A DNA stretch of 63,446 bases, filler included, from Reclinomonas americana ATCC 50394 (Eukaryota), in the NCBI GenBank assembly GCA_048213135.1. It is 7 parts of one record of this genome, joined end to end, with 100 filler letters (N's around TTAATTAATTAA, not from the genome) between each part and the next. Parts side by side here need not be neighbours in the genome. Positions count along the whole stretch, not along the records: positions 22,090 to 50,400 come from PS015082.1; 6 more parts are not named here. One strand, written 5' to 3'. Under the pieces are notes generated by a model that was not told where the DNA came from, ran no database searches, and saw nothing but the letters and a program-made list of their open reading frames with translations. Positions 7,254 to 57,464 of the stretch are shown one piece after another (within the stretch, counting starts at the first letter, position 1; each line of letters opens with the position of its first letter). The translations under genes were made by a program, and so were the position numbers.

Positions 7254-8761
7254 GACGAACGAACGAACGAACGAACGAACGAACGAACGAACGAACGAAC
7301 GAACGAACGAACGAACGACGAACGACGACGACGACGTACGTACGTACGTACGTACGTACGTACGTACGTACGTACGTACGTACGTTACCGTACCGTACGT
7401 ACGTACGTACGTACGTACGTACCGTNNNNNNNNNNNNNNNNNNNNNNNNNNNNNNNNNNNNNNNNNNNNTTAATTAATTAANNNNNNNNNNNNNNNNNNN
7501 NNNNNNNNNNNNNNNNNNNNNNNNNAGAGAGAGAGAGAGAGAGAAAAGGCCATGCACAACCCAAGACAAAGCACACGCAAGAGAGACACCGACAAGATGT
7601 GGATCCCAAGATGATTTGTTCTCCACGGACTGCCTTTCTCTTGTCCCTCACACAACGCAACTTGCCACACAGATAGTACACGCCCGGCGACGCCAGCGTG
7701 CACGAACCAGTCGCCGTCGCACCGAGAGCACCCTGCGCAAACGCGGCGCCAGTGGCCACCGAGAACACAGCCTGCTGACCCGAAGCATCGCTGGTCGACA
7801 GTGTGGCGCTCGAGTTGGCAGCCGGCGATCCGCTGCAGTCGGCGGCCGCGTACAAGCCAAACGAGCCACCAGCGCCCAGTTGACGATTGGCAAAGTGATT
7901 CCCAGTCACCGTCAAGCGATAGTCGGCGAGACCATTCACCAGCTGCGGTGTCTTGTTTGCCGTGCTAATAGCGTCTGCGAGTGTCGGGAAGGAAGAGAGA
8001 GTCAGCGACAGAGTGATGATGATGACTGCGCGCATGTGTTGACTGAGACGCAACAGACAAACACCGTGGCGACAAACTCGTTGCGAGCGGCCGTCCCCGC
8101 ACCGTCCACGTCGATGCACAGGTAGTGCTCACCACCGTTGCCGTCAGCCGACGCGTTGAAGGTGAGCGAGGCAGCAGCATTGGAGACGACGACAGTGGTT
8201 GGCGACACGCCCGTGCACGAGCGGTCGAGAAAGAGAGTGGCGGTGGAAGCAGTCGACCAGGCAATGGCCGAGCCACTGACATTGATGTCGACGATCTGAC
8301 CAGCGGTGCCGGCCTTGATGGCGATGTTGGAGGGCGAGATGACTGAAAGAGTGCAAAGAAATGAGTCAACGGTCGGCTTTCGCATATGCTCGCTGCGAGA
8401 GGGATAACACGCACAAAGACGTGACGCCTTCACAAAGGCAATCGGCTTCGCACGCAATGAATGAGAGTGCGAGATTTGTGCAATAAGATACGCGCGAAAG
8501 GTACTTCTTGCGCACATGCGCATGCACGTGCACTTGAGCTCTCAACGGTTGACTATCGCGCGCAGAAGGAGAAAACCGCAGCGGGCGCAATAGACGGCCA
8601 CGTACACGAGGGAACGAGAGAGGGAGGAGGAGGAGGAGGAGGAGGAGGAAGGAGGAGGAGGAGGGAGAGTCAAGACTGGCGGAAAACTGCGCGTGTTGTT
8701 CGCAGCACATGCACGTGAAAAGGCACGCACGCTGTGTGTGCTCGTGTGCGCGTGCATTCAT
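3688..8761 (-). CDS. Large putative secreted/surface protein: Ig/TIG-like modules followed by a C-terminal Cys-rich tandem array (model crosses the contig linker at 7470)
   Basis: Exons encode S/T/G/A-rich beta modules ending in Y/F-x-L-C (EHYLCID, VYYLCGK, AFKLCVA) and a hydrophobic LLLLLLLL stretch near the 5' end. The terminal exon starts after ttgtccag near 5376 and runs without introns to TGA at 3688. The 5' boundary is uncertain. Confidence 0.55.
3706..4901 (-). repeat. 14 tandem C-C-CC-C-C (knottin/ICK-like) protein modules
   Basis: Translation of ORF 3688..5397 contains 14 units such as CTLGAIGDPCSSPTECCSLFCVGFAC and CSADGDPCNDPAGCCSGNCDGSGFC. Confidence 0.85.
7470..7481. other. Artificial contig linker TTAATTAATTAA flanked by N runs (also 14875-14886, 22034-22045, 50445-50456, 52368-52379, 57409-57420)
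   Basis: The same 12-mer with stops in all six frames sits between ~44-N runs each time. Confidence 0.97.
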
Positions 8762-13004: not shown

Positions 13005-15011
13005 TGCCATGTCAAAGTGCTCCGCAAACAGAGCATCCACCAATTCTTCAGCGACACAACACACCGTCAGATCACCATATACACGGCGTGTGATAGCAAA
13101 ACAGCAGTGCACCATGCTTCTGAGCTTCGTCCTCGAACAGCGAAGCTCGTGGACCAGTCGGACCAAGCGCACGAGCCACCACACCCTGCATGTCGATAAT
13201 GTGCAGATTCTTGCGAATGTCGCCCGTCGACAGAGGCGAGCCGCCGCGAGGGACGACACCGTTCAATGCACGCGAGAACTCCTCCTGTGCATGCGGACAC
13301 GATCAGCACTTTTTTTGCACGTCATCACTGGCACGCATGGAACACCGCCGACCTTGGCCTGCTCCAATACGCGAAGCCTCATTTCAAAGTCGCGTTCTTG
13401 CTGGAATAGGCGAAGCAGGGTGAGGCCGGCACGGCAGTAGTCACCCATCACTCTCTGGAAGCGAAGCAGGATGCGGTACTTGCGATCGTTGCTCAGCTTG
13501 CGACAGCACGCCAGCAGGTAGTTGTGCGATCGCGCCAATCCAGGGTCTGTAACAGCAACAGCAAGCAGTCAGCAAGGCAAAGTAACTGAGCACGTGACGC
13601 CATCATCACACGCACCGCGGGCGGCGACTTCGGCGAGCAGCTTTTCAATTTTGCCGTGGCTCCACGCATACGACAGCAGCGTGTCGACAAAGAACGCCTC
13701 AGTGACGCTGGAGTCCAGGCACAGTTGAATCGCGTCTTCCAACAGGTGGTGTCGCACATAAAAAGCGCACACAGACGCCTCATTTCCCAGCAGGCGGATG
13801 TAGTAGAGACACTCGTTGAACCAGGACGCATCCTTGTCGGGACCTGACGCAGCATCGTGGCTGGACGATGAACTTGAGCCGGAAGCTGTGCCGCGAATCT
13901 CACGTCAGCAAACCATCGATATGTGCAGCCACAACAATCACCCTCGTGCGCAACGTGAGAGGCCCGACGGCAGCAGGGAGCGCGGGTTCTTGCTGCTTTC
14001 CAGTACTTGAAGAATGCGACTCAGCAACAACTTTTGCTGGTACGACGCACCTCCTGGGCATACAAACAAAGAGAGTCAAGAATAGAGCGACCACGCGGTG
14101 TGTGAATGCGGGAATGGCGCACCACTGCAGTACTTGAACTTGGCGCGCGCCTGCTCGTATTGCGACGGGCCACATTTGATGAGCGTGAGGCCCCACTCAC
14201 TCCACACTGGCTCGCTTTCGATGCCGCAAGTGGTGCACAGTGCCATGGCCAGTTGCATGTGATCGTTCTTCACCAACTGGTCACGCAGCTGGCGCAGCTT
14301 GTTGGCGTCGGACAGATCGCTTAGCCGAAGTGGCAGGTTGACGCGTTGCAAGAGGAGCGACTGCAGGGCACGGACGAGAGCACAGTAAGCAAGAGGAAGC
14401 GGGAAACCCGCAGCGAGCGTTCGCACCTTCATCAGTTCCACACGCGAGAGCAAAGTGTCGCAGAACGACACCGTGCCGGAAGAGTCCGCATTCTGCAATT
14501 GTGGAGAGCGCGTGAGACGCGGACACGACGTGAGAAGCACCGCGAGCCACAAGACCTTCAGATACAGCGTCTTGGTGTAAAAGATGAGTTGCGTCACGGT
14601 GGACAGCAGGAACATGTGGTACTCGGGCAGCACTTCGGGGAGCCGCGATGACAGCGTATCGGCAAGATCCACACAAAACGTCCCCGTCTTGTGGTAGTCG
14701 GAACACAGATCCAGGATCTTCTTGCCGAGTAGAATCGACGGGCTGTTGGGGAACTGGTGAGCGCGTCGAATGGCGTCGTTCTGCCGCTCGTCCAGCGTGA
14801 ATGCTGCAAGGTGCGAGACGTTCAGTACCANNNNNNNNNNNNNNNNNNNNNNNNNNNNNNNNNNNNNNNNNNNNTTAATTAATTAANNNNNNNNNNNNNN
14901 NNNNNNNNNNNNNNNNNNNNNNNNNNNNNNCAGGCGCGACACGTCGGCGAGCGCCTTTCGTGCGTACTCAACAACATTTCGGGTCCGTCGATCCAGACAG
15001 AGTAAGCGAGT

Positions 15012-18000: not shown

Positions 18001-21000
18001 TGATTCGTGCAGTTGAGGCACATTTGTCGCACCGGTTGAATCACAAACGGGATGCACAGGCGCACACACACCTTCGAGAGGTTCGGCTGGTGACGCACTG
18101 CGCAACTCTTCCGGGATGCGTCGCAGTGCATATCCCTGAGTCGCTGCACCGTCGGCACTCGACGACGACATGGGTGACAGTGGTCCGAGTGACCACATGG
18201 TCTGCACCGGCAGACTGGTGGCGTCCGCATCCCCATCGACAGCGGCACATGCTTCGATAAAGCTGCGCAGTGAGGACCGAACGCGATTGAGGACCGCTCG
18301 CGTCTCGTCGTCCACTTCGTCGCGGTCGTCGACCACATCCAGTGCTCGTCGAATCGCCGCCATGGCATCCTTTCGCTGAGCCGCGTCCTCGGCATCGGGC
18401 GTGCTGGCCACCAAACTTGACAAGACGTCCTCGGCAGAGTGCGCGTACTTGAGCGAGTCCGGGTACGCCTCATACGCGGTGGACAACAGCTCCTCTCGGG
18501 AACGCGGCTCCAGCGGTGCCTCCCACACGAGACTCAGCACACGCGCAAAGGCACGCGCACGCATAATCTCCGACATGGATTCTGCCGACAGGCCGTAGTG
18601 CGTCAGAACTTCGCCAGCCAGAGCATGGTTGCCGCTCGACAGCGCAGAGACGACAAGCGAAATGGGCTTCGAGAGCGCCAATCGCAAAACTCGCTCCACG
18701 TTGGTCGACAACTGAACATGCCAACGGTGCGTGAGAAAAACATGGTCTCCATCCTCGCTCTCTCTCTCTCTCTCATCGGCTCACCTGCGGCGTAAATGTC
18801 AACTTCCACTTGGCTTCGGCAACTTGGTCGGCGAGCAGTTTCAGTCGCTGCTGCAACAATGGTTGCTGCACCTCGTCCGACACCTCGGCCACCACCTGCT
18901 GCAGCACATTGACACACTGCCCGAGACACTCGAGCACGTACGCCACACGATCACGACAGAACACGTGCGTGGCGGCGGCGGCAGTCGACTTGTCCTGCTG
19001 CACGCTGTGGTAGTGCTCGACCACAGCCGCCACCAACAGCGACAAGATGCCCTCCACCACCCAAAACTGCCGATCGGCTGGAAGTAGCGAGAGCAGCTCC
19101 TCCACGCGCTCAAAGAGGTGAGCGTCCGGGTAGTGCCAGCACAGTGTGTACACGTAGAACGACACAAACAGCAATTCATCGCGCTCCTGCAAGAAACGAG
19201 GTCACTCTAAGAAGACAGCACACCGACAATCTCGAGTGACGCGCGGCGTACCAGCGCAGGAATGACTCGGCGCGACTGCTGCACGTGTTGGACGAGTTCA
19301 GCTGGCGGCAAATGCGGCAAATGATCGGCCAGTGCAAAAGCCAAACTGTGCTCGGTGAGCACCGAGCGCAGCCCCTCAACCAGACTGTCGATCTCTTCCG
19401 GATGCTCGCCAGACGCCGAGGTGTGATTCTCCCGAATGAACTGCAGCACGTGCAACTCGGCATACACGTGGTCGCTCTCGCTCAGCAGTCGACGGTGCAA
19501 CGGAGAGAGGCGATCGGTGGCCGGCGGCTGTGCAAAAAGAGTCGCNNNNNNNNNNNNNNNNNNNNNNNNNNNNNNNNNNNNNNNNNNNNNNNNNNNNNNN
19601 NNNNNNNNNNNNNNNNNNNNNNNNNNNNNNNNNNNNNNNNNNNNNNNNNNNNNNNNNNNNNNNNNNNNNNNNNNNNNNNNNNNNNNNNNNNNNNNNNNNN
19701 NNNNNNNNNNNNNNNNNNNNNNNNNNNNNNNNNNNNNNNNNNNNNNNNNNNNNNNNNNNNNNNNNNNNNNNNNNNNNNNNNNNNNNNNNNNNNNNNNNNN
19801 NNNNNNNNNNNNNNNNNNNNNNNNNNNNNNNNNNNNNNNNNNNNNNNNNNNNNNNNNNNNNNNNNNNNNNNNNNNNNNNNNNNNNNNNNNNNNNNNNNNN
19901 NNNNNNNNNNNNNNNNNNNNNNNNNNNNNNNNNNNNNNNNNNNNNNNNNNNNNNNNNNNNNNNNNNNNNNNNNNNNNNNNNNNNNNNNNNNNNNNNNNNN
20001 NNNNNNNNNNNNNNNNNNNNNNNNNNNNNNNNNNNNNNNNNNNNNNNNNNNNNNNNNNNNNNNNNNNNNNNNNNNNNNNNNNNNNNNNNNNNNNNNNNNN
20101 NNNNNNNNNNNNNNNNNNNNNNNNNNNNNNNNNNNNNNNNNNNNNNNNNNNNNNNNNNNNNNNNNNNNNNNNNNNNNNNNNNNNNNNNNNNNNNNNNNNN
20201 NNNNNNNNNNNNNNNNNNNNNNNNNNNNNNNNNNNNNNNNNNNNNNNNNNNNNNNNNNNNNNNNNNNNNNNNNNNNNNNNNNNNNNNNNNNNNNNNNNNN
20301 NNNNNNNNNNNNNNNNNNNNNNNNNNNNNNNNNNNNNNNNNNNNNNNNNNNNNNNNNNNNNNNNNNNNNNNNNNNNNNNNNNNNNNNNNNNNNNNNNNNN
20401 NNNNNNNNNNNNNNNNNNNNNCAAAACACGGCGCCACGGCACACCGTCGCGCATCCATTCGGCAGTCGGTCGCCCACTAGCGTGCGTATCACGCATTGGT
20501 GGAGGTTCAGTCATTGAGCCGCCGCGGTACTCACGCCAGATGGCCAACATGGCCGCCGGCGTCAACCCGAGAATACCCGACAGTTGTTCCAGCAGAGCAG
20601 TCACGCGCTGCGTACCACTCGCCGACGGGAAGCGGATCTGCATGCCCAGTGCAGTGCTGTCAGTGTCAGAGCACAGCACATGGCTGCATACGTGTGAGAC
20701 AAGATGCAGACCTGGTCCTGAAAGTTCTGTGCGAGAATGATGAGCTCGGCCTCCAGTCCCGCCTCCTCCAGCACCCGCGGTGAGAACTCCTGCTGCAGCT
20801 CCGCGTCGCACAGGATCGAATGCAGCAGCGCATAGTCTCGCTTCCGACTGTGCGAACACACCGTGAACAACAACAACAACAACACCAACCATGCAAGGAC
20901 GGAGACAATCGCCAACCTGAGCGTCGAGAAGGCCTCCAGTCGGGCCGCCTTATCGCGACCATGCCTAGCCATCTGCATCATCGCAGCCGTGCGCGGAGTG

Positions 21001-21930
21001 CGTGGGGTGGTGGCCGCCGCACGAGGCGTAGTCGGCGTAGACGCCAGTGCCGATGGCGCCACTCCGCGACCAATCAAGCGGAAGAATGCACGTGCCGCCT
21101 GTGATCACTCATCGACAGTCACGCCCAATGCAGAGATAGATAGCGAGGGAGGAAGAGACATGCACACACACACACACACACCTCAATCTGCGCCAGGCAC
21201 ACATGGTTCCAGAACGCCGACCGCTCGGCCTCGGCCACCGCACTGCCGAATCCCTCTCCACTCTCACCCCCTTCACCACCGCGATTGCTGCTGCGCGGAG
21301 TCAACAGACTGCCACGTGGCGTCTGCGGACCACCAGGACGCCCTCCACGTGACAGACTCGGAGGCTCCATTAGCTGCAAATGCACGAATGCGCGTGTGCG
21401 TGTGTGAGTGTGCGCGTGAAGTCAGACATGCTCACTGACACGCACGCTATGCACACACAGGCACATAGACAGGCGGACAGAGAGACGGAAGGAGAGCATG
21501 CATGTCTAAGAGAGACGCAACGATGGCCTCGCGTGTCGGTGAGTGACGACGAGTGACAGATTAATGTGTCCCGCGCGCGCGTCTCTGTCTCTCTCTCTCT
21601 CCGTCGATGCAGCGCCTGGGCGCCAGCGATGAAGAGGCGCTGGATGAGCTGGTAGAACGCTGCCTCAACCAGCTCTCTCGCACCGCGTTGCTATGGACGC
21701 TCAAGCGCTCAGTCAAGGCGAGCTGTCACGCACACACACGCACTCCCCCCCGATGCAAGTTGTTGTTGACATGCGTGACTGCAGGAGGAGATCATCAAGC
21801 CGAAGCATCGACTAGAGGACTTGAGCAGTGTCATACCCAACATCCTGCGCAACTCTGATCTGGGCCACGCACTGCGCAACAATGTGCAGCGATCGCTGGC
21901 CGAGTTGGGATCCGACAGGCATTCCAAACA
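13005..21930 (-). CDS. ZFYVE26: Spastizin (ZFYVE26/SPG15)-like protein, many exons, interrupted by gaps
   Basis: C-terminal segments LRDQLVKNDHMQLAMALCTTCGIESEPVWSEWGLTLIK..ARAKFKYC, FYVRHHLLEDAIQ..FFVDTLL, YLLACCRKL..YRILLRFQRVMGDYCRAGLTLLRLF and HQFPNSPSILLGKKILDLC match spastizin as I recall it. The N-terminal extent is uncertain. Confidence 0.8.
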
Positions 21931-22162
21931 GGTCTTGTCTCTCTCGCCCTCTCTCTCTCGTGCTGTGTGTTGATGTCTGACAGCAAGCGNNNNNNNNNNN
22001 NNNNNNNNNNNNNNNNNNNNNNNNNNNNNNNNNTTAATTAATTAANNNNNNNNNNNNNNNNNNNNNNNNNNNNNNNNNNNNNNNNNNNNCTTGTGTTGTG
22101 ATGTGGCACGAGGGGAGAAGGGACGCAGCGGCCTGACACGTGCGTATTGCCCGAACGCACAG

Positions 22163-23591
22163 CAATTCTACACGATTATTCCACACGATTTCGGCAACAA
22201 GATGCCGCCGCCAATCGACAACGAGGAGCTGCTGCAGAAGAAGGTGGCGACAGTGGACTCACTGCTGCAGATGGAGGTCGCCGCGTCGCTGCTCAAGTCC
22301 GACGGCTCTGCTGGTTCGCCGAGTGACACATCGCTCTCCTCGACAACCGTCCCCTCCCGCTGACCTGTGTATTTTTCGTGCCAGGTGGCTCAGAGGCGCT
22401 GCACCCGCTCGACGAGCACTACCAGCAACTGCGCACCGACATTGAGCCGGTGGAACGCAACTCGGAGGAGTGGCAGATGGTGGAGCGCTACGTGCGCCAG
22501 TCACACGGCTCGACGCACTCGCACTTCAAGCTGGCTGTTGCGTCTCACCTCATAGATGCAGTTGTGTGTGTGTTTTCAAGCTCTGATTTGTTGCGCTACA
22601 GCTGGTGGAGGTGTTCCGCATTGCTCGTGAGGGAGAGTCGGATCGGTACACGCCGTGGACCACGCTGCACAACCGCCAGCTGCTCTGGCACGGCTCGGTG
22701 CGCTGCTTCCTTTTTCTTGATGAGCTGCCCTCAGTCGCTCACTCGATGCACTCGTCGCAGCGCCTGACCAACTTTGTCGGCATTCTCAGCCAGGGTCTGC
22801 GAATCGCTCCGCCAGAGGCGCCAGTGACAGGCTACATGGTACGCGCACCTGCTGCAAGTCTTTCTCCGTGCACTGACTCACCTGTCCATTCCTTGTGTCT
22901 GCGCAGTTTGGCAAGGGTGTGTAGCGGCGGCGAAAGGCTCTCATTCTGTGTCGTCGCACTCTTCTCACACGTGATTGATCGTACAGGAATTTATCTCGCC
23001 GATCGCGTGTCGAAGAGTGCGCAGTATTGCTTCGCCCACTCGTTTGACAATCGCGGCCTCTTGCTGCTGGCCGAAGGCGCCCTCGGCAACATGTACGAGT
23101 GCACTCGCGCCAACTCGAGCCTCGCAAAGGCACCGCAGGGCTTCCACTCGACCAAGGGTGAGTATGTGTGTGGACGGCGCGAGTTTGCGAGCGTGATCTC
23201 TCTTGCTGACGCGCGGTGCGACGACGCAGGTGTGGGTCGCGTGCAACCCGACGAGAATACCTCCATCACCCTCCCCGACGGCGTTCTCGTCCCACTGGGC
23301 AAGACCAAGGAGCTGCCGGCATCGAGCACCACGCTGCAGTACAATGTTGCGCATCCATATCTATCGGGTTTTCTCTCGCAGCTTTTCTCACGCGCGCGCG
23401 TCTGTGTCGTGCACCTGCAGGAGTTTTGTCGCCGCCCCGCTTACGGTTCCCCGCCTCCGTCCCCTTTTTTCCATTCTCACCAAGCAATATTTTCGTTTTT
23501 GTGGCACAGATTTATCGTGTACGACATGTCGCAGGTCAAGCTGCGCTACCTGATCGAGCTCGACTTTACTGGCCAGGCGCGCCTGCTCTAA
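22163..23591 (+). CDS. PARP: Poly(ADP-ribose) polymerase, PARP1/2 type (regulatory + catalytic domains; 5' part lost at linker)
   Basis: Spliced product: FYTIIPHDFG..HNRQLLWHGS|RLTNFVGILSQGLRIAPPEAPVTGYM|FGK G|IYLADRVSKSAQYC..ALGNMYE..HSTKG..LQYN|E|FIVYDMSQVKLRYL. The H-Y-E triad is complete only if micro-exons 22907-22916 and 23421-23422 are used. Confidence 0.95.
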
Positions 23592-24088
23592 TCGGCACGC
23601 AAACGCCCCTTACTACTCCAGAGTCCAATCTGTGTGCGACCCTCCAATGAAAAATGAAGAATGCTGCTCCCCTCCCTCTGCGCCTCCCACAAGCCGCATC
23701 CCTCCACACGNNNNNNNNNNNNNNNNNNNNTTTTTGGTGGGTGTGGGTGGGTGTGTGTTTGGGTGCGAGCCGTGACAGAATGGGAGGCGCGGCGACGTGT
23801 CCTGTGCACAGAAAATTTGCTGGTATGTTTCGCGTGCGTGCTCTCCCTCTCTCGCGTGCGTGCATGCGGGGAAGGCAAGGCAGCGGCTGGAGTGGTGGGT
23901 GTATGTGCCACGTGTACTGGTGAGAGGAGGTGGAGCATGCCGACGTTGCGATATCGATTGTCCATGGTTTTGCGTTTCACAGGTGCCTTTGGGGTTTGTG
24001 GTGTGCCAGCTGTGGTTGCTCAAGCTTCATCCTCCAGGATGCATAATTTACCGGCTTGTGGCGATGGTTGGAGCAGGATTCGGCTTCC

Positions 24089-27878: not shown

Positions 27879-28248
27879 AGGGAAAAAAACAACAGGCGGC
27901 CCAGACGCTCTGAGTGAACAATCAAACCAATATGCACTTCTTCCTTCTCACATAACACAGAATTCCACTNNNNNNNNNNNNNNNNNNNNNNNNNNNNNNN
28001 NNNNNNNNNNNNNNNNNNNNNNNNNNNNNNNNNNNNNNNNNNNNNNNNNNNNNNNNNNNNNNNNNNNNNNNNNNNNNNNNNNNNNNNNNNNNNNNNNNNN
28101 NNNNNNNNNNNNNNNNNNNNNNNNNNNNNNNNNNNNNNNNNNNNNNNNNNNNNNNNNNNNNNNNNNNNNACCCAACTTTTTTTGAGTGTGACAAACAAAA
28201 AGTCAGCAAAGAGGCAAAAGACTGTGCATGACAACAAGCAAGCGCAAC

Positions 28249-31490: not shown

Positions 31491-33118
31491 ATGGAGGAGG
31501 TGCGTGCGACACACACACATGCACAACAGTGTCATGACTCGCACTGCTGCGCATGTTCTTCCGCGTGTGTGCGCCTGTGTGTTGGCATGACGATCGACAT
31601 GGCACACAAACTGCTTCTTCCTCTCTCTCTCTCGCTCTCTTTCTCTCTTCCAGTCCTCTATCAATGTTCATGCCACACACCTGTCTCTTTCCCTCTCCTT
31701 CGCATCACTTGTGCTTTTTTTTCGCTGGATTCGTCGCGCATCGCATCGAAAAGTTCTCACTCTCTTCGCATTTTTTTCTGCGCAGATTGTGCACTTGCTG
31801 AACACGGAAGTGGTGGATCGCCTGATTCTGGGTGTCGAGCCGAACCCGGCCAACACTCCGCTCTCGTTCGACTACTCGGTGTGGCGCCAGGCGGCGCTCA
31901 TTTGGTCGCTGATCACCTTTGGCGGCTACATTGTTTGTTGCGTCAATTGCCTGGTCCTGCCTCCCTCTCATCTGCCTCTTGTCACTCACGCACCCCATGT
32001 GCGTTAGATTTCATCTTCTGCACCCTGTCGTACCTGTGGACGTTCAAGCTGTACAAGAACTACTACTTCCCGCAGGGTCTGGTGGTGCCGTGGAGCCAGC
32101 TCGGCAGCGAGATCTTCCTCTCCTGCTGGTCGATTCCCATCATGGGCTTGCTGACGGTGCCGCTGGAGGTACGCGTCTCTCTTCGTCGTTGTCGTTGTGT
32201 GCCGACTGCCAACTCACCTGCATCGGCAGCTGCTGGTGCTGTACGGCTACACCAATGTTTACTTTAATGTGTCGGACTACGGCATGGCGTACATGTTTGT
32301 GTCGCCGGTGCTGTTCCTCATCTTTACCGACTCGCTGATCTACTGGATCCACCGCGGCCTGCACGACATCCCGTGGCTCTACAACAACATCCACAAGCCG
32401 CACCACACCTTCAAGGAGGTGACGCCGTTCTCGGCCTTGTCGTTCCACCCGGTCGACGGCTGGGCGCAGGGTCTCCCCTACCACCTCTTCGTGATGGTGT
32501 TCCCGTTCCACTCGTACATGTACTTTGGCGCCCTCCTCGTCGTCAACATGTGGACCATCAACATCCACGATCGTTGGTCACTCGACATCCCCGCCGTCAA
32601 CGGTGCTTCGCATCACGACATTCACCACCGCAAGGTATGTGCGCGCGCTCCCAATAGTGTGCTGATCTCCTGTTCCAGTTGCTCACTCTCTTGTCCCTCC
32701 CCCCTCGCAGTATGTCGTTGCGTACAATGCGTCAACCTGCTGCTCGCACCCGTGCTTCCCCCTCATTGCTCACCTCTCTCTGCTCGTGTCATCTCATCGC
32801 CATGCACACCAGTACAACGTTGCGTCTCACTCACATTGGTTTGTTTGTCAAGCGTCGCGCCACTGACCCTTCCCTTCCCTCTCCCCCTACGCAGTATGGC
32901 CAGGTGCTGTCGCCCTCCCTCTGTTCTCTCACCCCAGCCTCTCATCTCACATTCACACACTTGCTCAGTACTTGACCTTCTGGGACAAGGTCTGCGGCAC
33001 GTTCCTCGACCCGGCGGTGCAGGCGGCCAAGGATGCCGAGGAGGAGAAGAAGTGGGGCAAGCGCTCCGGCTCGGTCTCCACAGGTGCCGGCAAGAAGAGC
33101 ACCATCAAGGCGGCGTAA
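31491..33118 (+). CDS. ERG3: C-5 sterol desaturase (ERG3/SC5D family)
   Basis: His boxes YWIHRGLH, IHKPHH, SFHPVDG, NIHD and HHDIHH, then YV|YN|YGQ|YLTFWDKVCGT from micro-exons 32711-32716, 32813-32818 and 32895-32903. Stop TAA at 33116-33118. Confidence 0.93.
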
Positions 33119-33323
33119 TGGAACTGGCGAAGGATTGTTATTGTTTTTTTGTTTTCTCCTCCCAAGAGTAAGTGTGTGCACAGTCACTGTCTGTGTGATT
33201 CTTTCCCCGTTCAACGTACGGAGAAGTGAAGACGCATGACAAAGGCGGTGACGGCATCCATACGTACACAAACACAGCTTATTTAATTGTATTGCTTTGA
33301 CTGCTCTCTCATGATTAACAATG

Positions 33324-48559: not shown

Positions 48560-50507
48560 TCAAAAGCTCAGCTCGCGGTCTACGAGTCCCTCCGCATTCC
48601 ACTGCTGATAATCGCCATCCTCCACCGATTCGTCCTCCATGGCCATACGGTCGTACTCGACACGTGCAAACTTCTCCCAGTCACTGCGCACGACGGTGAT
48701 GAGGACACAATCTCGCACGTGAGAGAGAGAAGATATAAACCTCAGAGTGTTGCTCTGGTTCTCCTGGTACACCAGGAACGGATCGCGGGTCTCGAAGGAC
48801 AGGAACTTGTTGAGGTTGGTGAAGGTATTGATAAACACGTCGGCTTGCTTGCATCGCTTGAGGTCGGAAATGTAAATGGCGGTAATGTCCACTGGCTTCA
48901 CCATGTCCAACCTGAGCGCACGACCACCACTGGCGGTGAGCATCGCGTGGAGCAAAGGTTTCGCGACAGACACACACGCAAACACGCAACATTTGACACA
49001 AAATGTCGTCAAAGGTGACAATCTCGGCCGCCAGATTCTCCATGCGCGTCAGCTGCTCCGAGTACAGGTACTCGAGCTCGTACGCGGAGAGAAGACCATC
49101 ATTGTCAATGTCCATGATACGGAACCAGTACTCGAGCGCCGTCGGCGACGTCTTGTCCTCCTCGGCAACGCAGAACCCTGCTCATCGCGGCATGAGAGAG
49201 ACGAGAGGAGCGGCTCGACCTTTGCGACAGGGGAACGCAACAGATAAAATCGCGATATGACATCATGCCACGACGCTCGCACAGGAATCGTCTCGGCGCC
49301 TGATCAAAGATGCGATCCACCACACGCGACGTTAGTGCGTAGTTGCTGTACGCGGAGAACTCCTGCACACATTCACACATACACAGTGAGCCAGTGTGGT
49401 CTACACCTGCGCTGTCATCATCATCATCGTCGCAACTTCCTTGTTGATCATGAAATCGTGGTCGTGATCGAGCTCCCAGAACTTGCAGTAGAGCACATAA
49501 AAGTGCTCGTACGAGAAGAAATCCATGATCTGGCACACACACAGTTCCAACGTCAGCCTAATCCCCCCACAAGCTGCATGAACTGTATTGTGGCGCAAGC
49601 ACACCTGATTAATGTCGTCTTCGGTGTCCAGCTTTTGCAGGGTGGCCAGCAGTTTTGAGTTCTTGAAGCTCTTGAAGTCTATTGCCTCCAGGTTGGTGCG
49701 ATCGAGAACGTAGAATATCCGTTCGACCACCGTCTCGGCTGTGTGCGCGTGACAGGTGAGCGTTACGTGCTCCGCCATTCCCCGCCACTCGACTCGACTC
49801 ACCGTATCGTTCTTGGAATTCGGGCGTCTGCTTGAGGAACTCGAGGCCCGGATGTCGTTCGAGAACCTCTGCAGAGACGAAACAGCGGGTGAGACCACAA
49901 CATCAGGCAGGTAGCATTGTGTCGCGAGCACGAGACCTTGTACCAAGTCGACAAATCCACTGCGAACAATAGTCTTGCCAGTGGGAGCACGGAAAATATT
50001 GTACACCTGACGCGCCTCCTCGTTGCCGGAGAGTTCACGCTGCCAGTACCGCAAAAACGACTCGAGGGTCACGGTGCCGGTGCCTGTCGTGTCCACTCGC
50101 CGGAAAAGTGTTCGATTTACATACGATGGCAGCTTCAGCACGTCTCGTGTCACGCGCAGCAGGCCCACTTCTTGCAGTGCGTTGCTGCTGAGACCAAATG
50201 CACTCCGAAGGCGAGCCTACATGGATACACCACCTGCCATCAGCATTCGAGAACCGGGAGAGTGTGTGGCGAGGCCTCCCACTTACCGGCACATCGCCAT
50301 CTTGTGTCCGCACCGGTGGAGGCTTGGGCTTGTAGAACGAGGGAATGATCTGCGTGCTGGCATGTGAGACACAGAAAGCCAGAGACTCTCTCTCTCTCTC
50401 NNNNNNNNNNNNNNNNNNNNNNNNNNNNNNNNNNNNNNNNNNNNTTAATTAATTAANNNNNNNNNNNNNNNNNNNNNNNNNNNNNNNNNNNNNNNNNNNN
50501 TTACTTA

Positions 50508-52266: not shown

Positions 52267-52423
52267 GGAGATCACCCCTCTCTTTCTCACACACACGCCG
52301 CGAAGACCGGTGGGAGTGGCGCANNNNNNNNNNNNNNNNNNNNNNNNNNNNNNNNNNNNNNNNNNNNTTAATTAATTAANNNNNNNNNNNNNNNNNNNNN
52401 NNNNNNNNNNNNNNNNNNNNNNN

Positions 52424-57354: not shown

Positions 57355-57464
57355 CGTTTCTGTGNNNNNNNNNNNNNNNNNNNNNNNNNNNNNNNNNNNN
57401 NNNNNNNNTTAATTAATTAANNNNNNNNNNNNNNNNNNNNNNNNNNNNNNNNNNNNNNNNNNNN

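Follow-up and report, generated by a model that had tools for sequence, protein, structure and literature searches.

A predicted two-nucleotide exon within the catalytic glutamate codon of a PARP1-like gene from Reclinomonas americana

The end of a PARP1-like gene in the draft genome of Reclinomonas americana raises the question of how its catalytic glutamate is encoded. Direct reading of the sequence places the 3' end of exon 7, CAG TAC AAT, at 23345, and the terminal exon begins at 23510 with A TTT ATC GTG TAC GAC, the first A being the third base of the Glu codon. The preliminary description of this DNA had laid out the junction as AAT, an intron, the two bases GA, a second intron and A TTT, and this layout matches exactly in coordinates and in sequence. 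It had also held that a single large intron would break the reading frame, as indeed it would, for 23346-23509 is 164 nt and 164 mod 3 = 2. By frame arithmetic and alignment, inclusion of GA together with the following A restores the frame and the conserved Glu, and exclusion leaves a broken protein. GA and A build the codon GAA, and the catalytic Glu is encoded only if the predicted 2-nt exon is spliced in.

Our estimate is a probability of about 65% that GA at 23421-23422 is a genuine 2-nt coding exon of this gene, lying between two U2-type GT-AG introns. We infer its inclusion in the mRNA from homology and splice signals only; the introns would be removed in order, and the protein would presumably be active.

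A PARP1-like gene in a fragmented draft

The window, that is the whole stretch of 63,446 nt that was analysed, contains 23 N runs, of which six are contig linkers of the form N44-TTAATTAATTAA-N44. These linkers mark the window as a chain of separately assembled contigs, and gene neighbourhood across them is not trustworthy. The PARP contig itself spans 1.6 kb (22090-23710) between N runs, in an assembly that is a fragmented draft. The identification of the gene as a PARP, made in the preliminary description, is borne out by Pfam: PF00644 scores 134.4 bits (cut-off 26.7) and PF02877 scores 53.1 bits (cut-off 26.8). At Pfam gathering scores, the stop-to-stop ORF 22587-23591 matches PF00644 and the ORF 22046-22363 matches PARP_reg, PF02877. 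A model of nine exons was built from tblastn alignments with homologs and from GT-AG boundaries; its parts are given below together with the two candidate introns around GA.

22163-22313, plus strand: PARP exon 1, the first on the contig, end of the PARP regulatory domain (PF02877, tblastn, spliced model)
22385-22536, plus strand: PARP exon 2 (tblastn, spliced model), followed by a 65-nt intron with donor GTTGCG
22602-22697, plus strand: PARP exon 3, with the triad His codon at 22689-22691 in LLWHGS
22761-22838, plus strand: PARP exon 4 (spliced model, alignment)
22907-22916, plus strand: PARP exon 5, predicted 10-nt microexon, FGK and the first base of Gly (model enumeration)
22987-23157, plus strand: PARP exon 6, with the triad Tyr codon at 22992-22994 in GIYLAD
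23230-23345, plus strand: PARP exon 7, ending ...LQYN in phase 0
23346-23420, plus strand: upstream candidate intron, 75 nt, donor GTTGCG, 3' end CTGCAG, acceptor CAG
23421-23422, plus strand: predicted 2-nt exon GA, bases 1 and 2 of the catalytic Glu codon
23423-23509, plus strand: downstream candidate intron, 87 nt, donor GTTTTG, 3' end GCACAG, acceptor CAG
23510-23591, plus strand: terminal exon, base 3 of the Glu codon, then FIVYD..., with the TAA stop at 23589-23591

Joined, the nine exons encode 285 residues with 0 stops, comprising part of the regulatory domain and the catalytic C-terminus. The model is colinear, without notable gaps, with the catalytic fragment of human PARP1 (P0020) and with two long representatives. 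The likeness to human PARP1 runs from the end of the regulatory domain through the whole catalytic domain and takes in all three triad positions, the alignment covering LLWHGS (His), GIY[LF]AD (Tyr) and YNE[FY]IVYD (Glu); the His and Tyr of the H-Y-E triad are both present and aligned. The model differs from the PARP1 type in that the N-terminal domains are absent from the contig and in its 8 introns per 858 coding bases, an intron density so high that a tiny exon becomes more plausible than it would be in a typical gene.

The nearest homologs share 54-57% identity with the model over 278-286 aligned positions. A HMMER scan of 1.84 billion representatives of all lengths gave best identities of 59-64% over the matched stretches and returned no PARP protein of the same species; a word-index protein search limited to 183-585 aa gave a best BLASTP identity of 44%. 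No PARP profile match was found upstream of the nearest linker, in 20431-21989 (best E 1.6), from which it follows that the gene is 5'-truncated in the assembly. ATG-led upstream exons had been sketched before the linker at 21990-22089; they are unsupported by the PARP profile search.

Besides the PARP gene, the window contains the following features.

7426-7525, 14831-14930, 21990-22089, 50401-50500, 52324-52423 and 57365-57464: contig linkers
28177-30263, minus strand: serine palmitoyltransferase 2 gene, at least 5 short introns of 72-100 nt
32155-33168, plus strand: fatty acid hydroxylase, PF04116
42491-43090, minus strand: BTB_2 domain protein
48684-50216, minus strand: EF-hand protein, PF17958 and PF13499
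53557-56666 and 60061-63434: segmental duplication of about 3 kb, 85-89% identity

The best match of the serine palmitoyltransferase is that of the jakobid Seculamonas ecuadoriensis (51% identity, E 1e-99; the next match has 9e-80), which points weakly to a protist of Discoba type. The EF-hand protein resembles a PP2A B''-type subunit. The segmental duplication carries a gene of which the one ORF searched had no Pfam match. Rfam and tRNA scans of the window gave no match. The window, which comes from a GC-rich organism, is not that of Andalucia godoyi, for which PMC7050145 describes mostly intronless genes in an assembly of 66 scaffolds.

Two bases between two candidate introns

The residues predicted at the junction coincide with the catalytic-Glu motif of the family, as had been proposed. 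A contiguous YNE is found in 112 of the 120 listed homologs, none of these 112 showing an insertion within it, and 128 of 149 further representatives have a looser motif of the type [YFHW][NDSTG]E, the other 21 being mostly truncated or misread near that point. As a separate observation, four of these 149 PARP representatives (P0316, P0327, P0336 and P0337), all from other organisms, are broken off or turn to junk exactly at YN/E. Such breaks hint that in other eukaryotes too the Glu codon may be flanked or interrupted by introns, of differing phase.

For the junction (23300-23545), every splice model with 0-3 GT/GC-AG introns no shorter than 35 nt was enumerated, with the flanking frames kept open, and scored with a profile made from the 120 homologs. 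Among the 198 in-frame, stop-free models obtained, the one with the 2-nt exon ranks first, the preferred reading of the preliminary description thus scoring best of all. The leading models were as follows.

64.1 bits: 2-nt exon GA between introns 23346-23420 and 23423-23509
57.2 bits: runner-up, GC donor at 23349, the 2-nt exon also used
53.7 bits: single GC-AG intron 23351-23509, giving YN-VA-FIVYD with no Glu, the best model without the 2-nt exon
50.8 bits: 7-nt exon, acceptor at 23484
49.6 bits: downstream stretch retained

The same procedure gave a comparable answer elsewhere in the gene, where a predicted 10-nt exon (22907-22916) is flanked by introns of 68 and 70 nt. Around 22815-23010, 121 in-frame models were enumerated and the one with the 10-nt exon came first, at 163.4 bits against 155.3 for the runner-up. 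This predicted microexon would supply the FGKG of the invariant FGKG[IV]Y, colinear with human PARP1.

The two flanks of GA had been described as introns of ordinary size, and both are like the organism's own introns in donor type and branch motif as well as in length and composition. The reference was a small set of 11 introns (6 from the PARP gene and 5 from the serine palmitoyltransferase gene), defined by homology rather than by RNA; all 11 are GT-AG introns of 63-100 nt, with a median of 72. The candidate introns, at 75 and 87 nt, lie inside this range, and one intron of 164 nt would have 1.6 times the length of the longest reference. The donor GTTGCG at 23346 is identical to the donor hexamer at 22537, and donors beginning GTTT are found in 2/11 reference introns. 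A branch-like TTCTCAC occurs in each candidate intron (23385-23391 upstream, 23474-23480 downstream), its A standing 30 nt before the 3' end; the corresponding distances in the reference set are 8-43 nt within a search range of 8-45 nt. The T fraction is 0.32 in the upstream and 0.36 in the downstream stretch, as compared with 0.32 in the reference introns and 0.18 in the coding sequence, and the in-frame GC3 is 0.60 and 0.59, respectively, as compared with 0.81 in the coding sequence. Against the 2-nt exon, the last exon base before the two donors is T and A, respectively, whereas it is G in 9 of the 11 reference introns. The length of each candidate intron is divisible by 3 and no frame of either contains a stop, so that the reading frame would not penalise their retention.

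Some further features of the introns were recorded. The unusual hexamer GTTGCG begins 2 of the 8 PARP introns and probably also a palmitoyltransferase intron that enters a gap (minus strand, near 28240), and donors in this organism look weakly conserved after GT. The frame 22587-23591 is open for 334 codons through six introns, and 4 of the 8 PARP introns are multiples of 3. Stops occur in introns at a frequency of 1.9% per codon, with 22 of 36 intron frames stop-free, and the stop-free read-through of six introns was discarded as a sign of coding: its 145 open codons are expected in about 6% of cases by chance, which is not significant. The possibility that the candidate introns are duplicates of each other or copies of a mobile introner was likewise rejected, the 7-nt TTCTCAC being all that they have in common and 305 of 500 shuffles scoring as high; the rest of the window repeats neither of them except in matches of 11-18 nt.

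Other readings of the junction

Another splice pattern might be the real or the main one, whether retention, the 7-nt exon or the single GC-AG intron. All these patterns are in frame and stop-free, with scores of 47.8-53.7 bits. The whole read-through of 23346-23510 is 165 nt, in frame and without stops; retention of one stretch would place an in-frame insertion of 25 or 29 residues beside the Glu, each stretch being a multiple of 3 and stop-free in every frame, and the surrounding ORF stays open through six introns. Moreover, PARP family members without the Glu exist, and the GC-AG pattern, with its YN-VA-FIVYD, would make such a catalytically impaired PARP. Yet each of these patterns scores at least 10 bits under the model with the 2-nt exon, and each part of them meets an objection of its own. 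The homologs that carry YNE have no insertion of the kind that retention would create, and the stretches to be retained have the composition of introns, with GC3 near 0.6 rather than 0.81; the GC donor GCATCC at 23351 is unlike all 11 reference donors; and the acceptor at 23484 lies only about 5 nt downstream of the sole branch-like motif. This family of readings is unlikely, though well short of negligible. A Glu codon reached through non-canonical sites is extremely improbable; a 3-nt exon GAG with a downstream intron of the TT...GA type, giving AAT GAG TTT, would be one such case. The T run that follows GAG and precedes ATC would permit several equivalent boundaries of this kind that still encode Glu, but the window showed no non-canonical intron, all the reference introns are GT-AG, and the canonical GT and AG stand exactly where the 2-nt exon requires them.

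It is also quite unlikely that the assembly shows something other than a working gene here, whether because of an assembly or sequencing error near the junction or because the locus is a decaying pseudogene with a broken frame and one long intron, AG-GA-GT being then a coincidence. The patchwork nature of the draft, with its many N runs, the shortness of the PARP contig and the missing 5' part of the gene all favour this reading, and no independent copy of the locus was found among metagenome contigs: exon 6, used in a protein-guided scan, gave 499 pattern stretches, of which none was confirmed, and 28 bases of the terminal exon, sought as an exact match, gave 0 hits. On the other side, the long intron would exceed the longest reference 1.6-fold, and the coincidence itself is rare. 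In 40,000 random sequences of 164 nt, simulated with a first-order model of the window's own introns, AG-GA-GT occurred anywhere in 0.6%; it did so in only 31 (0.08%) when each half had to be 55 nt or longer and the internal AG had to be preceded by a branch-like motif at a distance of 8-45 nt. Given this level of mimicry, and given nine exon pieces that are otherwise intact and conserved over 285 codons without a stop or frameshift, coincidence is unlikely unless the gene is also broken.

Order of splicing and comparison with known systems

For a 2-nt exon, the acceptor AG (23419-23420) and the donor GT (23423-23424) would be only 2 nt apart, so that the factors recognising them would overlap and could not occupy both sites simultaneously. 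Instead, intron-defined splicing would take out the two introns in succession and leave the 2 nt behind. Were the downstream intron removed first, the upstream acceptor would face GAA TTT; were the upstream intron removed first, the remaining donor would stand in the context ...TGA|GTTTTG. Either order appears workable. The strict intron definition put forward in the preliminary description is a reasonable inference from the intron lengths of 63-100 nt and from the nearby 10-nt exon.

The same description had suggested that skipping of the exon could switch off the enzyme. This speculative idea holds in part, in that loss of GA would shift the frame: in the predicted frame, the last 26 residues would be replaced by 46 unrelated ones ending at 23650, and the Glu and the final strands would be lost. 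Nothing suggests that skipping is used or regulated. If it were, skipping would join the donor at 23346 to the acceptor at 23509, and ordered removal of the introns would set the balance of the two forms. It is very improbable that the 2-nt exon is not only real but also regulated in its inclusion, so that splicing would turn ADP-ribosylation on or off in this deep-branching (Discoba-like) eukaryote. The position of GA in the codon of the catalytic Glu is probably a coincidence, and one that would offer a clean functional read-out for a splicing assay.

Stepwise removal of this kind recalls two known arrangements. Recursive splicing uses ratchet points, which are zero-length exons with AG|GT adjacent, in the long introns of Drosophila and vertebrates. 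Ratchet points share with the PARP junction an acceptor and a donor too close for joint use and a stepwise removal. They differ in that they leave nothing in the mRNA and divide very long introns, whereas the PARP exon would keep 2 coding nt between short introns. A recursive splice site in the strict sense was rejected for this locus, where GA separates AG (23419-23420) from GT (23423-23424). In the stwintrons of fungi, an inner intron interrupts a splice signal of an outer one, and the likeness here consists of two introns in immediate proximity and of ordered excision. This assignment was rejected as well: the two PARP candidate introns are not nested, and each is complete with donor, branch-like motif and acceptor.

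Closer parallels come from plants. A constitutive 1-nt exon has been demonstrated by RT-PCR and reporter assays in the plant gene APC11 (Guo & Liu 2015, PMC4674806), and another in the plant gene VPS55 (Yu et al. 2022, PMC8831610), where exons of less than 3 nt are also described as hard to verify, usually absent from annotation and overlooked by standard aligners. A search of the literature for phrases on 2-nt or 2-bp exons gave, among the papers listed, none that looked relevant by title or start of abstract, which does not imply absence from print. Gene finders unable to place a 2-nt or a 10-nt exon will call this PARP truncated, frameshifted or catalytically dead, which makes the locus an annotation trap. 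If confirmed, the PARP exon would rank with the shortest coding exons on record outside plants, from a protist lineage that has been little studied, and would show sub-codon exon splicing to be widespread among eukaryotes with short, intron-defined introns. The plant exons and the predicted PARP exon are alike in being sub-codon exons between ordinary GT-AG introns and in being needed for the frame of a conserved protein. The plant exons are 1 nt long, belong to land plants, and are described in these reports as shared by many species and backed by RT-PCR, reporter and RNA-seq proof, whereas the PARP exon, 2 nt long and from a protist whose introns measure 63-100 nt, is a prediction from sequence only. 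Sub-codon exons are thus already known from plants, and the PARP exon would be a further, predicted case.
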